From contig JBLILN010000001.1 of assembly GCA_047635695.1 (NCBI GenBank), positions 46,559 through 110,558 of the forward strand: 64,000 bases of DNA, in the 5' to 3' direction. This document shows positions 24,023 through 39,115 of this stretch, piece after piece (position 1 is the first letter of the stretch; each line of letters begins with the position of its first letter). The DNA is from Alphaproteobacteria bacterium (GTDB lineage Bacteria > Pseudomonadota > Alphaproteobacteria > UBA2136). A model generated the notes under the pieces. That model saw only the letters and a list, made by a program, of their open reading frames with translations, was not told where the DNA came from and did not search any database. The position numbers were made by a program, and so were the translations under genes.

Positions 24023-24295
24023 CTAAACAGTCATTGCAATGACGTTACCTGGTAATTGAACATCAGTCACAACGTACTTTACTTTTTTTAAAACGTCTGC
24101 AGGCAATTTTTCAATTTTTAATTGAATTATTTTTCCAGAATGTTGCTCACGATAATAAGTATAAGTGCTATCGGCTAATATATCTAAGCTATCTGTCACC
24201 TTTTTTAAGCTTATTAAATTATTAAAGGCGGCTTGTGTGATAACTTGAAATGTTGCCTGTTCTTCAGTTTGTGTACCAGGTATTGCTACTTTCAT
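24023..24295 (-). CDS. hypothetical protein (weak FlaG-like C-terminus)
   Basis: 90 aa. SGKIIQLKIEKLPADVL loosely resembles the FlaG family motif TGEVIRQIPPEE.L. The RBS sits in the 3' arm of a hairpin. Confidence 0.4.
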   Translation of the reverse strand: MKVAIPGTQTEEQATFQVITQAAFNNLISLKKVTDSLDILADSTYTYYREQHSGKIIQLKIEKLPADVLKKVKYVVTDVQLPGNVIAMTV

Positions 24296-24725: not shown

Positions 24726-24752
24726 AAAAAACCGCCCCAAGGGACGGTTTAA
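24726..24752 (-). terminator. rho-independent terminator after fliW
   Basis: The minus-strand reading gives accgtcccttggggcggt followed by T8. Confidence 0.5.
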
Positions 24753-24777: not shown

Positions 24778-25248
24778 TTACAACTTGTGTTGTGTTGTGT
24801 AGTCTTTACTTGTAAGAACGTGCTGACGTGCTTTTCTGGTACGGCTGTCAATAAGCAGTGGCGCACGTAAGTTAGCTGTTAGGTAGTATGAGTCTTCTTG
24901 GTCATACATAGTAAGGATAACCATCAGTTGAGTTGACTCTTTGCTCATGCCCGCTTCTTTAAGCGCCTTTGCAACGTCTTCGTCTTTAATTTCAAGGCCG
25001 AGAATTTTTGGATCGGCAACGAGGAAGCCAATTTCAGGTTCGTTGACGCACTGCAAAAGCATAATTGGTGATTCGTCAGCGTTTGGAAGCTTACAAAGAC
25101 CAAAAGTTGTGCATTCGTTAAAGCCTAATAGGCCTTTGTCGAAGCTGATAAGGCGGTCTTCGCGAAGTGTAACTTCACCAAAACGTGTATCATAGTTTAA
25201 TGCTTTATCTACTGGAACTTTTTGTTCTGTTAATGTTGTTTGTTGCAT
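24778..25248 (-). CDS. fliW: flagellar assembly factor FliW
   Basis: 156 aa. FGLCKLP...MLLQCVNEPEIGFLVADP fits the FliW family. AGGAG SD. It lies 4 nt after csrA. Confidence 0.8.
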   Translation of the reverse strand: MQQTTLTEQKVPVDKALNYDTRFGEVTLREDRLISFDKGLLGFNECTTFGLCKLPNADESPIMLLQCVNEPEIGFLVADPKILGLEIKDEDVAKALKEAGMSKESTQLMVILTMYDQEDSYYLTANLRAPLLIDSRTRKARQHVLTSKDYTTQHKL

Positions 25249-25252
25249 ATGG

Positions 25253-25483
25253 CTACTCCTTGTTTTTTATGCTACTTAGCAATTTGCTAATGTCACCTAC
25301 ATTGCTGGCGGCAACTTTGTTCTCTTCTTGAATTTTCAAGTAGAGTTCTTTACGGTAAACTGTATTGCCTTCTGGGTATTCAAACCCAAGCTTTACACGT
25401 CCACCGCGTACTTCAACAACCGTAATTTCGATGTTATCGTTAATTACAATCGATTCGTCTGTACGCCTGGTTATAAGGAGCAT
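25253..25483 (-). CDS. csrA: carbon storage regulator CsrA (FliW-binding type with C-terminal extension)
   Basis: MLLITRRTDESIVINDNIEITVVEVRGGRVKLGFEYPEGNTVYRKELY is closely similar to Bacillus CsrA, including the extended C-terminus. Confidence 0.85.
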   Translation of the reverse strand: MLLITRRTDESIVINDNIEITVVEVRGGRVKLGFEYPEGNTVYRKELYLKIQEENKVAASNVGDISKLLSSIKNKE

Positions 25484-25570
25484 TTTTTATGTTTTTCCAT
25501 ATTATTTTGAACAATTAGCTATAGTTTTACCAAATAAAAGGAACCACGGCTAGTTTTTGTTCATTTGCTC

Positions 25571-26476
25571 CTAAATATAGTCAAGTAATGACAGCCTGTT
25601 TAACTGTGTAATAACAGCCATCGACGCTTCAAGCGTGGTTTGCTGTTGCGTAAAACGTGTCATTGCTTCGGCGATATCAACTTTTTCAATATTATCGACC
25701 TGTTCTGTTAAGAATAGGTTTGTGTTTACATGGCGGGTTTTAAGTAAGTCAAAGCCTGACTGCTGTCCGCCAATTTCACCAAGCATGTTAGAAAGGTCTA
25801 CTTGTGCTTGGTTCAAAAGGTTAATGGCGCCATCAATATCAGATTCAGAGTTATTCTCTAAACCAAACCAAAGGGCTTCAAGACCAGCTTTCATGTTGGC
25901 AAAACCATCTTCACCACCTGTGATACCGTAAGTTTGTGTTACGTCGGTCGATGTAATCACCAAAAGTTCTTGTGAGTCACCATTATAATAAGTGTTGGGT
26001 GCAGGAATACCTGCGGGTACTGTTGTCGCAACAGGGCTAGACGTAATCGGCGGGCGATCACCAGAAGCGCCTGAAAATATGTATCGGCCATCAAATTTTG
26101 TTTTAAATAAAGAGTAAAATGTTTCTGTTAACCCCTCTGCCTTAGGTGCAAGGTTTGCACGCACTTCAGCAGTATTTTCATTACGACCAAGTGTCCATAA
26201 ATTTGCGGCTTCGACAACTAGGTCAACCATACCTTGGATAGAATTTTCGCTTGACTGTAAACGTGAATCGACGGTTTCCATGTTTTTGATAAACTGTTCA
26301 TTGATACCACGCAAGTCTTGCAAGTTTAAAAGTTGTCCAGCTTGAGCAGCAATGTCTTCAAAGCGCTCCGCTTTAAGGCCGGATGTTACCTGAAACGATG
26401 TTTTGGCTAAATCTGCATTACTTTTTTGCATTTGCTCTAGTGTGTTTCTATGGATGGAGGCTGTTGCAACACGCAT
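25571..26476 (-). CDS. flgL: flagellar hook-associated protein 3 FlgL
   Basis: 301 aa with flagellin-like N- and C-terminal helices (N-term MRVATASIHRNTLEQMQKSNADLAKTSFQVTSG, C-term QTTLEASMAVITQ). Confidence 0.8.
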   Translation of the reverse strand: MRVATASIHRNTLEQMQKSNADLAKTSFQVTSGLKAERFEDIAAQAGQLLNLQDLRGINEQFIKNMETVDSRLQSSENSIQGMVDLVVEAANLWTLGRNENTAEVRANLAPKAEGLTETFYSLFKTKFDGRYIFSGASGDRPPITSSPVATTVPAGIPAPNTYYNGDSQELLVITSTDVTQTYGITGGEDGFANMKAGLEALWFGLENNSESDIDGAINLLNQAQVDLSNMLGEIGGQQSGFDLLKTRHVNTNLFLTEQVDNIEKVDIAEAMTRFTQQQTTLEASMAVITQLNRLSLLDYI

Positions 26477-26492
26477 CTTCTATTCTCCTTTT

Positions 26493-28298
26493 TTAAACAA
26501 TGTTTACAAGCGTCTCAAGCATCTCATCCACAAGGGATATGATGCGCGCTGAGGCTTGGTAACTACGTTGAAATACAAGTAGGTTAGATAGTTCTTCGTC
26601 AATGTTCACGCCAGCAGTTCCGCTGAGACGTGTTTCCATGTCGGTTAATATAGCTTCGTTAAATTCTTGCGTTTTACTTGTGTCTTGTAGGCGGATAGCA
26701 AGGTTACTAGAAATACTAATGAAATATTCATTTATGCTTTTTGATTGCACAGCAAGGCTACCAGCAGCGGCAAATGTAACAGGTGCCTCTGAAAGCAGTG
26801 CGAGCTCAATAATATTACGGTTATCAAGGAATGATACACCGCCATCTGTGTCACGCATACGGGCTGTGGCCACACGTGCCGGGTCGGCAATAATGTCGGC
26901 GCGAATGGCCATGTCTGTGGCATTTTCACCTGTGAAGAAATTGTTGACACCTATTTCGCCAAGTACGTTACCAACGTTATTTTTCATGACAACACCGTGT
27001 GCAGCATTGTTTGCTGTAATACGTAGTTGTTCGTCGCCATTTGTGTCAATGAATGTTGAGGCTGTCACGTCCACATTCACATCTGGGTTTGCGTTAATAG
27101 CGTTTGCAATATCAGTTAAGGTTGTTGGTGCGACGGCAATTGTGAGAGATCCGACACCGCCACCAGCAAGTAATGTTGTTGAAATAGGTGAGCCTGTTGC
27201 GATATCAATAATTGAAATATCAAAGCTGTCGCCGACGTTAATGTCCAATTCGGCTGTAATATCAGCGCCAGCACCAGAAAGTTCTATGCCATTACCAGAG
27301 TCAAGTTGGTTTAATGGTGGGATCGATGTACCTTGGCTGTGTATGCGGTTGAAGCTATCAATCATGTTTGCAGCAAGGTTGTTTACTTCAGCGAGCAAGT
27401 TAACCATTTCTGTATCACGTACATCAACAAGGCCTTTTATGCTGCCGTCAGTCATGCGATTGGTTAAAATAGGGAACACAATAGTGCCAGGTATACCGTC
27501 TTCAGTAAAAGGTCTTGTGGAAATATCTTGGAATGTTGATGGTGCAACCGCAGGGGCTCTTTCAAGCTGAACATAGCTTGTGTCGACAAGGCGTCTACCT
27601 GTTTCTGTTGAAACAGATGCACGGTCAAGGCTGTCATAAATAACATTCACATTCATGTGTTTGGCAATGGTGTTAATTTGGCGAGAGCGTTCGTCAATAA
27701 GGTCGTTGGCATTTGCACCACCGTTTTTAACAACACCAAGAGAAACAATTTCTTTGTTCAGGGTGTCAATTTTACGAATAGCTTCGTTCACTTCAACAAT
27801 AGCAGAGTCAATTTGTGCATCGGCGCGGAATTGTGCACCGACAATTTCGTTCGACAAGTTTTTAAGAGAGTCGACGACGAATTCAGCGTTTTTAACAGCG
27901 TTAAGCTGTAGTGATGTAGAATCTGGCGCATTGGCCAAGTTTGACATGTCACTAAAAAAATTACCTATAACCTTTTCAAGGCTAGTGTTCGCCCCAGGTG
28001 TACCGAAAAGAACTTCAAGGTTATCCATGAAAGTACTTTTTGCTTCATCATAACCAACGGCAGAAACTTGTTCTGTGATACGTTCACTTAAAAAGTTGTT
28101 GGTGACCTGGCGAATATCATTAATACCAACACCACCACCAAAACCTTCAATGGCAATGTTACCTGTGAGGACTTGCTGACGTGTATAACCTTCAGTATGG
28201 ACGTTAGAGATGTTGTGTGAGATGGTGCTGATAGTTGTTTGCGTTGTTTGCATCGAACTAATGGCAATACCAAGTGTGGAATTAAGTGTAGCACCCAT
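26493..28298 (-). CDS. flgK: flagellar hook-associated protein 1 FlgK
   Basis: 601 aa. N-term GIAISSMQTTQTTISTISHNISNVHTEGYTRQ and C-term LLVFQRSYQASARIISLVDEMLETL. Confidence 0.9.
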   Translation of the reverse strand: MGATLNSTLGIAISSMQTTQTTISTISHNISNVHTEGYTRQQVLTGNIAIEGFGGGVGINDIRQVTNNFLSERITEQVSAVGYDEAKSTFMDNLEVLFGTPGANTSLEKVIGNFFSDMSNLANAPDSTSLQLNAVKNAEFVVDSLKNLSNEIVGAQFRADAQIDSAIVEVNEAIRKIDTLNKEIVSLGVVKNGGANANDLIDERSRQINTIAKHMNVNVIYDSLDRASVSTETGRRLVDTSYVQLERAPAVAPSTFQDISTRPFTEDGIPGTIVFPILTNRMTDGSIKGLVDVRDTEMVNLLAEVNNLAANMIDSFNRIHSQGTSIPPLNQLDSGNGIELSGAGADITAELDINVGDSFDISIIDIATGSPISTTLLAGGGVGSLTIAVAPTTLTDIANAINANPDVNVDVTASTFIDTNGDEQLRITANNAAHGVVMKNNVGNVLGEIGVNNFFTGENATDMAIRADIIADPARVATARMRDTDGGVSFLDNRNIIELALLSEAPVTFAAAGSLAVQSKSINEYFISISSNLAIRLQDTSKTQEFNEAILTDMETRLSGTAGVNIDEELSNLLVFQRSYQASARIISLVDEMLETLVNIV

Positions 28299-28335: not shown

Positions 28336-28352
28336 TTAGATTACATGCAAGC
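28336..28352 (-). promoter_or_regulatory. sigma-54 (-24/-12) promoter upstream of flgK
   Basis: Minus strand reads cTGGCACaaggcTTGCAtg, a perfect TGGCAC-N5-TTGCA, about 40 nt upstream of the flgK ATG. Confidence 0.55.
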
Positions 28353-28410
28353 CTTGTGCCAGTTTTGTTGATAAGGGCGAAAAACGCCGCTATTTCGTCT
28401 TAAAACAATA

Positions 28411-28436
28411 AAAAAGCCTCCACAGAGGAGACTTGA
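28411..28436 (-). terminator. rho-independent terminator after P1
   Basis: Minus strand gtctcctctgtggaggc followed by T6. Confidence 0.55.
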
Positions 28437-28458: not shown

Positions 28459-28716
28459 TTATAAGGCAGGCCTAATATGGTATGTTATAATTCTGATTGT
28501 CTTTCTCCATAGCCAACCCCCACTTTCTTTATAAGGCATATCTGAAGACATGATCACAGTATAACCTTCATTTTCTAAGGTCTTGATTATGTCTTTGTTG
28601 CTAAAGCTGTAGTTTACAGGTTTAGGTAGAAATGTAAGTGTGACGGAATCTTTTAATTGAGTTTTAAAACTATCAATAACGTCTTGTGTAATATCCGTTA
28701 TTTTTGGTGCTTTCAT
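28459..28716 (-). CDS. hypothetical small protein P1 (GxWxWKK family)
   Basis: ATG 28716 with AGGAGAG SD, 85 aa. The C-terminus YKESGGWLWRKTIRII is shared with P2/P3. Confidence 0.5.
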   Translation of the reverse strand: MKAPKITDITQDVIDSFKTQLKDSVTLTFLPKPVNYSFSNKDIIKTLENEGYTVIMSSDMPYKESGGWLWRKTIRIITYHIRPAL

Positions 28717-28844
28717 AAATTCTCTCCTAAAGAGGAATAAAAAGAGATGTGCAAAAAGCATGATGTTTTGCATATAAAATGCGGTTATAACTAATAAATA
28801 GTGCTTTTGTGCTGTATTTTAAGGGGTAGGGGACAAAAAAACAC

Positions 28845-31084: not shown

Positions 31085-31124
31085 CTTTTTTCTCCCCAGA
31101 AAGTTTATCTTTACGAAGGGATAT

Positions 31125-31140
31125 ATGCATATGCCGTGCC
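31125..31140 (-). promoter_or_regulatory. sigma-54 (-24/-12) promoter of the flgI unit
   Basis: Minus strand TGGCACggcatATGCA, about 43 nt upstream of the ATG at 31084. Confidence 0.5.
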
Positions 31141-31184
31141 AAAACACACTTATACGCCGTTTATTTATAAATAGAGCCAAAAAA

Positions 31185-31232: not shown

Positions 31233-31562
31233 TTAATTTTCAGTGGGTTCTAAGGGCTTTGTCCACGCAATAGCGATGGTATAAACTTGCTTTTTCCAGA
31301 ACCAAGAACCTGTTTGCGTATGGCTTACGTGTGCCGATATATCGGTTAGGTTTAATTTAGAAATTTTATTTTGAACATAGTCATCGTAAGCTTGGCGAAG
31401 TTCTTCTGTTTTTGCGTGGTTGTTAAATTTAAATTCCAATGCAAGGTAGCTACCGAGAGAGCTTTCGTCTCTAGTGTTTTCCTGTATTTCAATGAGGTTG
31501 CTGTCTATTCTGACTTTACCATGGGCTTCATCGATAACAATGCTATTTGTAATTTTAGACAT
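31233..31562 (-). CDS. hypothetical small protein P2 (GxWxWKK family)
   Basis: 109 aa. YLALEFKFNN...TGSWFWKKQVYTI is homologous to P3 over about 55 aa and to P1. Confidence 0.5.
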   Translation of the reverse strand: MSKITNSIVIDEAHGKVRIDSNLIEIQENTRDESSLGSYLALEFKFNNHAKTEELRQAYDDYVQNKISKLNLTDISAHVSHTQTGSWFWKKQVYTIAIAWTKPLEPTEN

Positions 31563-31571
31563 AATTTTCTC

Positions 31572-31955
31572 CTAAATTTCAGTTTCAACATCAGTGATGT
31601 CGGACGTTCTTTTAATAGCGTTGACTTCAAGAACAAAAAAATGTTCTTTCCACCATAAAATTCCAGTAGAGAGAATGCTTACGCTAGACTTTATTTCCAT
31701 CTTCAAGTTTTGATTTTCAATATGAGTTTTTAGGTGATCTTCTAACATTTCAGCTTTAATTTCGGGGTAGCTGCAGTTATTAAAAAAATGTGAATATTTT
31801 AAATATTTTGAGCCAAAGCCTGAGCGGTGGTCAAAATCACTCAGCTTTTCAACTATTTCTTCTATATAGTTATACTCTTCTTTAGAAAGCCTTATAACGC
31901 TTTCATTGAAGGAACGGGCGCATCGTGGCTCAGTTATATTCATCGATTTCTTCAT
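31572..31955 (-). CDS. hypothetical small protein P3 (GxWxWKK family)
   Basis: 127 aa. YLKYSHFFNN...STGILWWKEHFFVL. It lies 9 nt upstream of P2 and overlaps P4 by 4 nt. Confidence 0.5.
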   Translation of the reverse strand: MKKSMNITEPRCARSFNESVIRLSKEEYNYIEEIVEKLSDFDHRSGFGSKYLKYSHFFNNCSYPEIKAEMLEDHLKTHIENQNLKMEIKSSVSILSTGILWWKEHFFVLEVNAIKRTSDITDVETEI

Positions 31956-32404
31956 AATTTTCTCCCTGCTGGAGGTGGTGAGCTGGGCTTTTTATCGCCT
32001 AAAAATTTAGTTAGGGTGTCGGCGCTGTTGGGTTTGGGTAATTGAACCTCGAATACAAAAAGGTAACTATTGGTGAGAAATGTAAATAAGATAAAATCTT
32101 TGCGCTGACGTTGCTTAAAAAAATCTATTACTATAATGCCTTTGTTTATAAGTTGTTGGACTAATGTATCCTCAAATAAATTTGCTTTATTAATAGGGCA
32201 GGCGCGGTCACTGAAATTTGCGCTCATATAAACGTATTCAGATACATCTTTAGACGTCTTTAATTCTTTTAAAGCAGTTTCAGCGAATTCATCAATGGAA
32301 TCAGTGTCTTTTATGCTCATTAAGGGTTTTTTGTCGCCCTTTTGTTTTTTGATATTGGTTATAGTATTACCCTCCGTTAAAGGGTGTTTTGATTTTGAAA
32401 TCAT
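31952..32404 (-). CDS. hypothetical lysine-rich protein P4 (first gene of P4-P3-P2 unit)
   Basis: ATG 32404 with AAGGAGA SD. Lys-rich N-terminus, hydrophobic FILFTFLTNSYLFVFEV core and a proline-rich tail. Confidence 0.45.
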   Translation of the reverse strand: MISKSKHPLTEGNTITNIKKQKGDKKPLMSIKDTDSIDEFAETALKELKTSKDVSEYVYMSANFSDRACPINKANLFEDTLVQQLINKGIIVIDFFKQRQRKDFILFTFLTNSYLFVFEVQLPKPNSADTLTKFLGDKKPSSPPPAGRKL

Positions 32405-32431
32405 AAATTTTCTCCTTATGGGAGATGTATG

Positions 32432-32452
32432 GTCACTATGAAAAATAGTGAC
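32432..32452. promoter_or_regulatory. perfect 8-bp inverted repeat GTCACTAT-N5-ATAGTGAC upstream of P4
   Basis: It lies 15-35 nt upstream of the P4 SD. It is an operator-like palindrome or a 5' UTR hairpin. Confidence 0.35.
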
Positions 32453-32641
32453 GTATAAAAAGAATATGTGTGTATGTTGTGTACAATATGGCATTTATAC
32501 TGCTTTTTCAAGTGTTTTATGTAAGCTTTTTAGTAAAATTGCTTGCATATACTTTTTTTTATGTTACTTTCGCTTTACCTGCATGCGTCGGAATGTATGT
32601 TGGCTTGTGATTAATCTCTCTTATATTGAGGAAAATGGAAA

Positions 32642-36938: not shown

Positions 36939-39053
36939 TTATATTGTTACCTTGTATTGGTGTGCTTTATTTACGATCAAAGATAACGGTTTTTCTGCAT
37001 GCGCCTGTTCTTTTTTAATGTGAATATCACCCGTCATATCTAGCTTTTCTAAGGTTTGTCTAACAACTGATTTTATACCCTGTACATGTTCTTCTTCTAA
37101 AGGTGTACCTGTGCTTAGTTTAAGCTGAATATCACTTTTTTGTACAAGGCCATCAATTTGAATGGCACCCATGGCTGTTAACTCTAGGTGGACAATAAAC
37201 CGTGTGTTCTCAGCATGACCATCCTCATCTTCTTGATTGTGCCAGAAAAAACCACCTTGCCTGGGGTCAGCGTCCTCGCCTTCTAAATAAGGGAAAAGTA
37301 GGGCACGCCAACTTTCTGGTTGTTCGCTATTTTTTTGTGTGGTGGCTTGTAAATTTTTTATATCTGCTGAAAAATCGATTCCCAGTGCCTTAAGTAAGTT
37401 TAATGTTTCTTCGCCTGCAAGGCGCTTCATGGACTTTGTGTTGACGGCATCAATAAAGCTTATCAAATTCGGTAAAAAAGTTTCTTTTTCTAAATTAGGT
37501 AAGTTGTTTTTCAATTGCTGTCCATCGCTGGGGCTTGCATATTTGAGAGCATTTAAACTTTTAAGGAGTGTGCTCCACTTGTTGGCCATATGGGTGAGTG
37601 TTATGGCCTGTGAAACGGTTTGCGGTATTTGTGTCTGAATAATTTCTGGCACGCCGTCTTCTGCAATCATGACCGTTACTTTGGCACCAATAGGTATGGC
37701 TGTTTTTGCCTTCACGTCGATGATTTTACCGTCTGCGAATGATAAAGTTATTTTACCATCGCCTTTTTGTTCTGTCACAGTGCCACTATGTTGGCTACCA
37801 GGTTTAAATGGAAGTTGGCTTTGTTGCTGATGATGTTCTTGTTGCCCTTTGGGCTGTATAAATGTTTGTGCGGAATGCCTAGAGCCTGTGGCTGTTTCGT
37901 TGTTTACTTTAATAACCTGCACGCCACCTGTTTTGTCTATTTTAATAGTCATTTCAGAACCTTCTGCTATATTTGTTTGGCTTGTTAGGGAGAGTTTTAT
38001 ACCACCTGACGTCACGGCTTTATGCGTAAATTGTGCTAAAGCCGTTGTTTTAACCTCACCAAGCGTCAATGTTTTTGTTTCAATTAAGTCGGGCTGTTTG
38101 ACTGCACCTGATATTGTTTTTATGGTGAGCTCAGCACCTATGGGTAGGTTTTTTTCAAAGCCTGTGATTTTTGTGCTTAAAATGATGGACTGCGCTTGCG
38201 TGCTTGAAACTTGAGGTAAGACGACTTCTTTGGTGGCAAGTACCGCGACATTTTTTGGTGGCGTGATATCTAGTATTTCACCTTTGCCTGATACGATGTT
38301 CATTTTAATAACGGTACCAGTTGGCACGACCGTTGGAAATTTGGCCTGAAAAGGCGGTATGTTTTTGAGGGCACCGTCAGAAGCCGTTATCGTTAACAGA
38401 GCGTTGTTTTGTGGTTGCAGTGTTTGCAACCCATTATCGGGTTTAGATACCACAACAGTGACAACACCGTTTGCATTTGCGAGTACTTGCCCTTTAGGTA
38501 AAGTGAGGGCAACTTTTTGTCCTATAAGTGGACGTAGCTGTTTGAAGGGATCATCTTTATGGACTTCTGCAACGTTTGTTGCGCTGGATTTTAACAATGC
38601 GTCCGTGAGTTGAGGTTTATTTTCTGCAAGAAGGGTAAGTTTGCTATTGGGTGCTGTATTTTTACCTTGTGTGAGTAAATCACCGAGCTGTTTGCCGCCC
38701 GCTTGCTTTTGTTGGTTAGACCCCATGTCTTGTTGTTTTTTATCACTCGTTTCTTTGCTGAAATTATCAACAACCATGGCGGTTATTTTGTTCTCACCGC
38801 TTTTCATAGAGATGAATGAAATAGGGCTACCAATTTTAGGTGCAGGCGTTATTTTCGCTTGAAGGGTTTGACCGTCTTTCAGCTGAAGTTTGTAATGCCC
38901 GTTCGAGTATTTTTCAATCACTTTCGAATTGACTGTTTTACTCTGTAAAGATTTAGGAATGGGTTTGCTGAATTCAATTTTAGCATCGGCTGGTACTTTG
39001 CCACTTGAAGAACGTGGTACATGTGGTGCTAAGTCGTTATCAATATGAACCAT
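36939..39053 (-). CDS. flagellar hook-length control protein FliK-like
   Basis: 704 aa. The Q/K-rich central region has repeated Gx(V/I)x beta-segments. The C-terminal segment RFIVHLELTAMGAIQIDGLVQKSDIQLKL...VRQTLEKL fits the FliK C-terminal (Flg_hook) pattern. Confidence 0.6.
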   Translation of the reverse strand: MVHIDNDLAPHVPRSSSGKVPADAKIEFSKPIPKSLQSKTVNSKVIEKYSNGHYKLQLKDGQTLQAKITPAPKIGSPISFISMKSGENKITAMVVDNFSKETSDKKQQDMGSNQQKQAGGKQLGDLLTQGKNTAPNSKLTLLAENKPQLTDALLKSSATNVAEVHKDDPFKQLRPLIGQKVALTLPKGQVLANANGVVTVVVSKPDNGLQTLQPQNNALLTITASDGALKNIPPFQAKFPTVVPTGTVIKMNIVSGKGEILDITPPKNVAVLATKEVVLPQVSSTQAQSIILSTKITGFEKNLPIGAELTIKTISGAVKQPDLIETKTLTLGEVKTTALAQFTHKAVTSGGIKLSLTSQTNIAEGSEMTIKIDKTGGVQVIKVNNETATGSRHSAQTFIQPKGQQEHHQQQSQLPFKPGSQHSGTVTEQKGDGKITLSFADGKIIDVKAKTAIPIGAKVTVMIAEDGVPEIIQTQIPQTVSQAITLTHMANKWSTLLKSLNALKYASPSDGQQLKNNLPNLEKETFLPNLISFIDAVNTKSMKRLAGEETLNLLKALGIDFSADIKNLQATTQKNSEQPESWRALLFPYLEGEDADPRQGGFFWHNQEDEDGHAENTRFIVHLELTAMGAIQIDGLVQKSDIQLKLSTGTPLEEEHVQGIKSVVRQTLEKLDMTGDIHIKKEQAHAEKPLSLIVNKAHQYKVTI

Positions 39054-39098: not shown

Positions 39099-39115
39099 GG
39101 CAAAAAGAGTGCCAA
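39099..39115 (-). promoter_or_regulatory. sigma-54 (-24/-12) promoter upstream of fliK-like gene
   Basis: Minus strand tTGGCACtctttTTGCCat, about 49 nt upstream of ATG 39053. Confidence 0.5.

Follow-up and report, generated by a model that had tools for sequence, protein, structure and literature searches.

A late flagellar operon with the widespread FliW/CsrA pair in an uncultured marine alphaproteobacterial lineage

Layout and boundaries of the operon

Open reading frames and profile searches define a flagellar operon, flgK-flgL-csrA-fliW, on the minus strand of the window, by which we mean the whole 64-kb stretch of DNA analysed. The gene for hook-filament junction protein 1, flgK (26493..28298, 601 aa), matches TIGR02492 with 275.7 bits (cutoff 170.75) and also matches PF22638 and PF06429. 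It is followed by flgL (25571..26476, 301 aa), the gene for hook-filament junction protein 3, which matches TIGR02550 (146.1, cutoff 127.2) and encodes Flagellin_N and Flagellin_C domains. The last two genes are csrA (25253..25483, 76 aa; PF02599, 75.3 bits, E = 3.6e-21; TIGR00202, 77.2, cutoff 70.1) and fliW (24778..25248, 156 aa; PF02623, 86.1 bits, E = 2e-24). For every NCBIfam FliW model, the score of FliW falls short of the equivalog cutoff, which makes it a divergent member of its family. Both CsrA and FliW of this metagenome-assembled genome (MAG) are already correctly named by NCBI. The csrA/fliW junction reads TAG-ccat-ATG, and the fliW Shine-Dalgarno sequence, AAGGAG, is located inside the final two csrA codons. 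This tight junction is suited to coupled translation. The preliminary description had placed the four genes on one strand, with csrA and fliW separated by 4 nt; the profile matches of all four genes and the sequence of the junction bear this out.

Downstream of the operon, 28 nt past the fliW stop codon, we observe a terminator consisting of a 9-bp stem with five GC pairs and a run of eight T residues (24729..24750, minus strand). A second terminator on the same strand (28414..28434; 8-bp stem and T run) follows a strain-specific 104-aa ORF and closes the upstream unit. It sets the 5' limit of the flgK operon, insulating it from the upstream genes. The terminator search returned no coding-strand terminator between flgL and csrA, and neither inspection by eye nor a search gave a convincing sigma-28 or sigma-70 match for an internal csrA-fliW promoter in the flgL-csrA spacer.

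In front of flgK lies a sigma-54 (-24/-12) promoter, TGGCACaaggcTTGCA (28347..28361, minus strand), which matches the TGGCAC-N5-TTGC consensus exactly. The promoter, TGGCACaaggcTTGC, precedes the flgK ATG by about 49 nt. Exact matches to the consensus occur twice in the 64 kb, against 0.20 expected, a count reached by 2 of 100 shuffles, and both are positioned approximately 47-49 nt upstream of start codons within the flagellar cluster. The flgK promoter is exact in five of the six aligned genomes (the window and the related loci L003, L004, L006 and L007), with diverging flanks, and carries one mismatch in the sixth, L005. A sigma-54 promoter ahead of the operon and a terminator behind it had both been proposed previously, and both are upheld, the promoter also by its conservation in relatives. 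Neither RpoN nor its activator was seen in the 64-kb window.

The earlier assignment of the host to the Alphaproteobacteria agrees with its NCBI label ('Alphaproteobacteria bacterium') and with several markers in the window. AtpD reaches 765-747 bits with mitochondrial and Paracoccus chains, compared with about 655 for the E. coli protein, and the best matches of cytochrome b are those of Rhodobacter capsulatus and mitochondria. An atpHAGDC-like F1 operon, recognised from the AtpD match and from the lengths of its ORFs, lacks neighbouring Fo genes; separation of the F1 operon from the Fo genes is an alphaproteobacterial trait. The mid-distance relative L012 shows a weak match to the FliX domain. 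The NCBI labels of the relatives vary (Magnetococcales, Proteobacteria, Pseudomonadaceae), and a literature search on UBA2136 yielded nothing that bears on order-level taxonomy.

Conservation of CsrA, FliW and gene order

CsrA is 76 aa long, compared with 61 aa for E. coli CsrA, and can be aligned to B. subtilis CsrA through residue 73, consistent with the extended C-terminus reported in the preliminary description. Its best matches in the PDB are 1t3o from B. subtilis and 5dmb_D from the Geobacillus CsrA-FliW complex, with the E. coli and Pseudomonas CsrA/RsmA structures ranking below these two. In an alignment that includes E. coli CsrA, the RNA-binding residues L2, R6, R44 and E46 are invariant, as is I14. 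N55, a contact for FliW (bioRxiv 10.1101/2020.07.02.184341), is present in all clade members, in Bacillus and in Geobacillus, and is replaced by K in E. coli. The best PDB match of FliW is 5dmb_A (E = 5.9e-15). The equivalents of FliW Q124, N108, A111, P112 and F58, on which binding to CsrA depends in B. subtilis (bioRxiv 10.1101/2020.07.02.184341), are invariant in the FliW alignment. Of P26, another residue of the cluster near CsrA N55, L007 keeps the proline, whereas the close clade has L.

A survey of csrA-fliW in relatives, suggested along with the initial observation, shows that the order flgK-flgL-csrA-fliW is kept in 11 of 11 related loci, all from metagenome-derived contigs, down to 51% FliW identity. 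In a more distant alphaproteobacterial FliW clade, L014 and L015 keep flgL-fliW but have no csrA between the two genes, indicating that FliW can persist without an adjacent csrA.

Probable function of the CsrA-FliW pair

Because the contact residues of CsrA and FliW are kept, the sequences point to a FliW-CsrA partner switch as the most likely function, and we consider it probable that the locus is a sigma-54-dependent late flagellar operon carrying a canonical module of this type. Judging from the homologous systems of B. subtilis, C. jejuni and G. sulfurreducens, a CsrA dimer would block translation of flagellin mRNA by binding to GGA motifs at its ribosome-binding site, with FliW held by cytoplasmic flagellin. 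Once the hook-filament junction (FlgK/FlgL) is complete and flagellin is exported, FliW would be freed to bind the CsrA face around N55, releasing the mRNA. As FliW would free the mRNA only after flagellin export, flagellin synthesis would follow secretion. With csrA and fliW on the flgK-flgL transcript, the regulator pair would be delivered as filament assembly starts. Several observations weigh against this reading: FliW is divergent, its P26 is replaced by L in the close clade, the B. subtilis salt bridge between CsrA D41 and FliW K123 is not conserved, and searches of the window, its flanks and the related loci found neither a flagellin gene nor, among the window leaders, a convincing pair of GGA sites.

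Alternatively, CsrA could act mainly as a global post-transcriptional regulator whose targets lie in metabolism, biofilm formation and elsewhere outside the flagellum, with FliW as one input and flagellin homeostasis as a minor task. We regard this as possible but rather unlikely. CsrA shows the highest conservation in the operon (92-96% identity among close relatives, 69-89% for the other proteins), which fits a protein with many targets, and passages in PMC7366521 (citing Li 2018), PMC13407953 and PMC11934962 provide precedents in non-flagellar proteins of C. jejuni and in Geobacter biofilm. It also counts in favour of this alternative that no flagellin target was found in the window, its flanks or the related loci. 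Using the N-terminal domains of E. coli FliC, B. subtilis Hag and Caulobacter FljK as queries, tblastn detected no flagellin gene in the window or in 19 loci, only FlgL, weakly. The 10 kb beyond either end of the window contain only housekeeping genes and no flagellin, and the neighbourhoods of 10 FliW/CsrA homologues have no Flagellin_N/C gene except flgL. The 63 leaders of the window show no outlier in GGA or A.GGA counts (mean 0.75, maximum 2), and none contains a convincing pair of GGA sites. As for RNA antagonists, the 64-kb window has no 150-nt stretch with at least 8 GGA on either strand, the pattern sought for a sponge-like RNA, and no Csr/Rsm RNA of Rfam at gathering score. Against a mainly global role, csrA lies within a sigma-54 flagellar operon, and all relatives with a csrA have it coupled to fliW. 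A global role and the partner switch are, moreover, not mutually exclusive.

It is improbable that FliW serves solely to chaperone flagellin or to assist assembly, with its allosteric inhibition of CsrA lost or rewired. This idea arises because a salt bridge between CsrA D41 and FliW K123, needed in B. subtilis for inhibition after binding, is missing here. CsrA has T at position 41. B. subtilis has D there and Geobacillus E, which shows that this residue is not fixed even among established members of the module. At the position of FliW K123, the close relatives carry R, and L005 and L007 carry V or M. The flgL-fliW loci L014 and L015, with no csrA in between, would also suit a FliW of this kind. 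However, the N55/Q124 binding couple and its surrounding residues are invariant, and a natural FliW-CsrA fusion protein, P0118, occurs in metagenomes. The csrA-fliW junction is also tight in most relatives: the gap is 4 nt in L003, L004 and L006 and 6-11 nt in L016 and L018, and in L007 and L005 the genes are about 2 nt apart or overlap. The exception is L019, with 77 nt.

The spacer between flgL and csrA (25484..25570, minus strand) is predicted to be structured, with a minimum free energy of -26.1 kcal/mol and z = -4.7. In the predicted closing helix, AGGAGCA, which overlaps the flgL stop codon, pairs with UGCUCCU at the csrA start, and the predicted inner stem joins UGAACAA to UUGUUCA. Conserved blocks are found in an alignment of the spacer among relatives. 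An analogous arm occluding the csrA start is predicted in L003, L004 and L019. The upstream arm is at the flgL stop codon or within about 15 nt of it in the window, L006, L003 and L004, whereas in L019 it lies about 80 nt past that codon. RNAalifold identified 0 compensatory pairs in four sequences, no Rfam family matched the spacer, and in a duplex test with shuffled spacers as reference only some genomes gave a significant result. We entertain, as a doubtful joint reading, that the spacer gates csrA translation and that the lineage records stages in the loss of FliW/CsrA. With such gating, CsrA would be made only once ribosomes finish translating FlgL. If this reading is true, the spacer would couple CsrA dosage to FlgL synthesis in addition to the classical partner switch, and the lineage, together with the FliW-only loci L014 and L015, would record how the ancestral FliW/CsrA system was lost in stages in Alphaproteobacteria, prior to the takeover by FlaF/FlbT.

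Relation to known flagellin-control systems

The preliminary description presented the arrangement as Firmicute-style and unusual for its host, a framing that does not hold. Passages of PMC13443453 (citing Mukherjee 2011) and bioRxiv 10.64898/2026.06.11.731707 regard FliW/CsrA as an ancestral, widespread system, the gene order is shared with Geobacter, and Magnetococcus had already been listed. That the module came recently by horizontal transfer from a Firmicute, or from some other donor outside the proteobacteria, is very improbable and was rejected: although Bacillus and Geobacillus proteins are the best solved-structure matches, mostly because the FliW-type complexes solved are from these organisms, the operon, its sigma-54 promoter and the adjacent petABC are syntenic across relatives down to approximately 51-57% FliW identity, regional GC is uniform (0.38-0.44), those of the closest CsrA/FliW homologues that bear a source name, a minority, are all from proteobacterial MAGs, and the gene order is as in Geobacter and unlike that in Bacillus (PMC13407953).

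In Geobacter sulfurreducens, flgJKLMN-csrA-fliW is a co-transcribed operon, as described in passages of PMC13407953 (Hernandez-Eligio 2025 as cited there), and FliW binds CsrA (PMC13407953). The window resembles it in the order of flgK, flgL, csrA and fliW, in late flagellar co-transcription and in a broadly proteobacterial host. It differs in that flgJ and flgN are in a separate upstream unit beyond a terminator, the operon has a dedicated sigma-54 promoter and no flgM, and the host is alphaproteobacterial.

The Hag-FliW-CsrA partner switch of B. subtilis is described in Mukherjee 2011 and 2016 and in passages of Oshiro & Kearns (bioRxiv 10.1101/2020.07.02.184341). The window pair shares with it the extended CsrA C-terminus, CsrA N55 and I14, FliW Q124, N108, A111 and F58, and the linkage to flgK-flgL. 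In Bacillus, however, hag directly follows the pair, whereas no flagellin gene adjoins it here; the window promoter is of the sigma-54 type, and the D41-K123 salt bridge is not kept. The Bacillus order is fliW then csrA, the window order csrA then fliW. The flagellar hierarchy of Campylobacter uses sigma-54, like the window operon; csrA and fliW of C. jejuni are non-adjacent. [quoted passage not shown]

Magnetococcus MC-1 and MO-1 and Magnetofaba IT-1 have flgKL-fliW-flaG-fliD-fliS clusters (PMC7175107, PMC5088516). As in the window, fliW comes after flgK-flgL in a deep-branching alphaproteobacterial lineage, and some relatives of the window are labelled 'Magnetococcales bacterium' in NCBI. 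The published Magnetococcus and Magnetofaba clusters have no csrA between flgL and fliW and have fliC, flaG, fliD and fliS adjacent, whereas in the window csrA stands between flgL and fliW and petABC follows. In a 2015 survey, Magnetococcus marinus was the only alphaproteobacterial case listed with CsrA and FliW and was among six species possibly bearing both a BarA-UvrY component and FliW; alpha-Proteobacteria were absent from the groups likely to use FliW (PMC4682653).

In Caulobacter, FlaF and FlbT, which are unrelated proteins, perform an analogous task, post-transcriptional flagellin control tied to assembly (PMC4894983). Scans of 39 window ORFs, several of them small unannotated frames of the flagellar cluster, gave no Pfam match to FlaF (PF07309) or FlbT (PF07378), and the Pfam listings for genes called at the related loci contain none either.

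The locus is thus a late flagellar operon with the widespread FliW/CsrA flagellin-control pair. It adds a further example, from an uncultured marine lineage of Alphaproteobacteria; the mechanism itself is not new, since the pair is already known from many bacterial groups. If the proposed partner switch is true, this clade would use the ancestral FliW/CsrA switch instead of the Caulobacter-type FlaF/FlbT system. This would fill a gap in the known distribution of FliW/CsrA and offer comparative material on how the two solutions replaced each other.

Organization of the operon and its surroundings

Four genes, flgK, flgL, csrA and fliW, lie in one orientation on the minus strand of the window. 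FlgK (28298..26493, 601 aa) matches TIGR02492 at 275.7 bits (cutoff 170.75), as well as PF22638 and PF06429, and FlgL (26476..25571, 301 aa) matches TIGR02550 at 146.1 bits (cutoff 127.2). They are followed by csrA (25483..25253, 76 aa; PF02599, 75.3 bits; TIGR00202, 77.2 bits) and fliW (25248..24778, 156 aa; PF02623, 86.1 bits). The csrA/fliW junction reads TAG-ccat-ATG, a gap of 4 nt, and the fliW ribosome-binding site, AAGGAG, is formed by the final two codons of csrA. Upstream of flgK is an exact sigma-54 motif, TGGCAC-N5-TTGC (TGGCACaaggcTTGCA, 28361..28347, minus), itself preceded by a predicted intrinsic terminator (28434..28414, minus). The operon ends 3' of fliW at a 9-bp terminator hairpin followed by a T run (24750..24729, minus); no coding-strand terminator was found between flgL and csrA. 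The gene set, shared strand, 4-nt gap, sigma-54 promoter and downstream terminator given in the preliminary description are confirmed in every detail.

Exact sigma-54 motifs occur twice in the 64-kb window, compared with 0.20 expected. The second (39114..39100, minus) lies ~47 nt 5' of a 704-aa ORF (39053..36939, minus) that has no Pfam match. By eye, the ORF looks like the hook-length protein FliK, judging from a Q/P-rich middle and the C-terminal sequence RFIVHLELTAMGAIQIDG.... A one-mismatch motif, TGGCACggcatATGC (31127-31141, minus), is located ~40 nt 5' of position 31087, the probable true start of the small ORF preceding flgI, and may drive transcription of flgI-flgJ-flgN.

The flagellar and chemotaxis genes of the window form a scattered, polar-type set: flgI, the rod-binding flgJ and flgN lie 5' of the operon, and cheW, fliI, fliJ, cheR, flhG, flhF and flhA are more distant. 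On the 3' side of fliW are petABC, the cytochrome bc1 genes. Small ORFs in the flagellar cluster (28773..28459, 31562..31233, 31955..31572 and 32494..31952, all minus) have a C-terminal G-x-W-[FLW]-W-[KR]-[KE] motif in common; two of them, of 109 aa and 127 aa, share 30% identity across 79 residues.

Several genes bear on the identity of the host. The exact FliW and CsrA of the window are present in NCBI under the name 'MAG: ... [Alphaproteobacteria bacterium]'. AtpD best matches mitochondrial and Paracoccus beta subunits (765-747 bits, versus ~655 for E. coli), and cytochrome b best matches those of Rhodobacter capsulatus and mitochondria. No Fo genes adjoin the F1 operon, which was called as atpHAGDC from the lengths of its ORFs and the match of AtpD; a split between F1 and Fo genes is an alphaproteobacterial trait. 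Related metagenome-assembled genomes (MAGs) are labelled 'Magnetococcales bacterium', 'Proteobacteria bacterium UBA2136', 'Pseudomonadota bacterium' or 'Pseudomonadaceae bacterium'. Assignment of the host to the Alphaproteobacteria is sound at the class level. The 'Pseudomonadaceae' genome (L005, JACKLD010000013.1) carries flgK-flgL-csrA-fliW beside petABC, which is here upstream of the operon on the opposite strand, and its FliW is 63% identical to that of the window. This label is implausible and probably wrong.

The interface between CsrA and FliW

CsrA of the window is more similar to CsrA of B. subtilis (1t3o) and Geobacillus (5dmb_D, the CsrA chain of the Geobacillus CsrA-FliW crystal complex) than to CsrA/RsmA of E. 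coli, Yersinia and Pseudomonas. The extended C-terminus attributed to it is indeed present: the 76-aa protein aligns with B. subtilis CsrA across the C-terminal extension, up to residue 73. The homologues listed are 74-124 aa long and therefore all bear such extensions. FliW aligns with 5dmb_A over residues 23-156 (E = 5.9e-15).

Oshiro and Kearns describe CsrA N55 and FliW Q124 as an invariant contact pair, ringed by FliW P26, F58, N108 and A111; a salt bridge between CsrA D41 and FliW K123 is required for inhibition, and CsrA I14 matters too (bioRxiv 10.1101/2020.07.02.184341). We aligned CsrA from the clade with those of Bacillus, Geobacillus and E. coli (A3), and compared FliW sequences in a second alignment (A4). 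N55 is found in all clade members and is K in E. coli; I14, R6 and R44 of CsrA are invariant, as are the FliW equivalents of Q124 (Q142 in this FliW), N108, A111, P112 and F58. In the close clade, FliW has L in place of P26 and R in place of K123; L005 and L007 have V or M at the latter position. CsrA carries T at position 41. The alignments thus show a retained binding interface that lacks the specific D41-K123 salt bridge. Geobacillus CsrA has E41, so position 41 is not fixed among known members. One metagenome protein (P0118, JGI/Logan, 229 aa) carries FliW (PF02623) and CsrA (PF02599) domains in a single chain, a natural fusion that is consistent with physical interaction of the partners.

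Conservation in relatives and the flgL-csrA spacer

The survey of related alphaproteobacteria proposed earlier recovered the csrA-fliW pair, in the order flgK-flgL-csrA-fliW, in 11 related loci: each of the five species-representative genomes identified (L003-L007, with FliW 57-89% identical), and L012, L013 and L016-L019. Conservation within the operon is highest for CsrA (92-96% identity among close relatives, versus 72-89% for FliW and 69-78% for FlgK), and purifying selection is evident. The csrA and fliW genes are separated by 4 nt in L003, L004 and L006, by 6-11 nt in L018 and L016 and by 77 nt in L019; in L007 and L005 they overlap or lie ~2 nt apart. The sigma-54 motif 5' of flgK is retained in L003, L004, L006 and L007, and with one mismatch in L005; the sequence around it has diverged among the same genomes. 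In most of the 11 loci petABC adjoins the operon; it lies ~6 kb downstream in L013 and was not seen beside the operon in L016/L017.

Two ORFs of the window, of 104 aa (28773..28459, minus) and 90 aa (24295..24023, minus), are missing from the relatives and look like strain-specific insertions. The former is located between flgN and the flgK promoter, with a terminator on each side. The latter has no family match and sits in the fliW-petA gap, which is ~970 nt in the window versus ~110-350 nt in most relatives.

The 87-nt spacer between flgL and csrA (25484-25570, minus) is predicted to form a stable fold (-26.1 kcal/mol, z = -4.7). In its closing helix, AGGAGCA, overlapping the flgL stop codon, pairs with UGCUCCU, made up of the csrA start codon and the four bases after it; the inner stem, UGAACAA/UUGUUCA, is conserved. 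In relatives, too, an upstream arm is predicted to pair around the csrA start, though its sequence and position differ: UAUAAGGAGC / GCUCCUUAUA in L003, GGUAAAAGUAGCAUC / GAUGCUUCUUAUUACC in L004 and GGUAAAAAGAGCA / UGCUACUUAUUACC in L019. The short spacers of more distant genomes have no such arm. Compared with 500 dinucleotide-preserving shuffles per spacer, the best-duplex energy gave p = 0.002 in L004, 0.004 in L003, 0.02 in L019, 0.046 in the window, 0.07 in L018, 0.30 in L006 and 0.70 in L016, in genomes that are not independent of one another. For this reason, and because no compensatory changes were detected in the spacer structure, conservation of a start-occluding arm is suggestive only. 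The spacer matches no Rfam family. It is plausible that csrA is translated only by way of ribosomes that terminate at flgL. The spacer structure leaves the verdict on the FliW/CsrA module unchanged.

A second, more distant FliW clade comprises MAGs labelled Geminicoccales, Rhizobiales or Alphaproteobacteria. In two of its loci (L014, 5307-12695; L015, 977-8362) the order is fliX-flgI-flgJ-flgN-flgK-flgL-fliW, followed directly by a gene for a TPR and GT41 protein whose architecture resembles that of FlmG. These loci lack csrA, both between flgL and fliW and elsewhere; FliW here is without its usual partner nearby.

Relation to known FliW/CsrA systems

The preliminary description called the operon Firmicute-style and its csrA/fliW order inverted. 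The first of these labels is not borne out. FliW/CsrA is treated as the ancestral arrangement of flagellated bacteria in PMC13443453 (citing Mukherjee 2011), and a 2026 survey groups the pair with widely co-present flagellar genes (bioRxiv 10.64898/2026.06.11.731707). In Geobacter sulfurreducens, where FliW binds CsrA, fliW is directly 3' of csrA and co-transcribed with it as part of the operon flgJKLMN-csrA-fliW (PMC13407953). The order csrA-then-fliW after flgK and flgL is common to that operon and ours, and was therefore already characterized in a proteobacterium. Zere et al. (2015) include Magnetococcus marinus among genomes carrying both CsrA and FliW, and do not name the alpha-Proteobacteria among groups likely to use FliW (PMC4682653); flgKL-fliW clusters are known in MC-1, MO-1 and IT-1 (PMC7175107, PMC5088516). 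It remains true that well-studied Alphaproteobacteria use FlaF/FlbT, which PMC4894983 names as an analogous system. We found no experimental work on alphaproteobacterial FliW/CsrA in the literature.

By homology, CsrA would bind GGA motifs at the flagellin ribosome-binding site and repress translation, and unexported flagellin would sequester FliW. Once the FlgK/FlgL junction is assembled, flagellin would be exported, and FliW would bind CsrA and lift the repression. Of this scheme, the present data show the gene identities, operon architecture, conserved interface and purifying selection; binding to the target, binding of FliW to flagellin and the switch itself are inferred. The window, the 10 kb flanking each end and all related loci contain no flagellin gene. 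Leaders in the window have at most two GGA motifs, and we found neither a sponge-like GGA cluster nor an Rfam match to a Csr/Rsm RNA.

The preliminary interpretation is partly supported. The system of the window is a divergent instance of the known, widespread FliW/CsrA system, in a lineage where it is already annotated. In homologue searches, a FliW/CsrA module is standard in a sizeable clade of uncultured MAGs, which carry an alphaproteobacterial label wherever a source is named.
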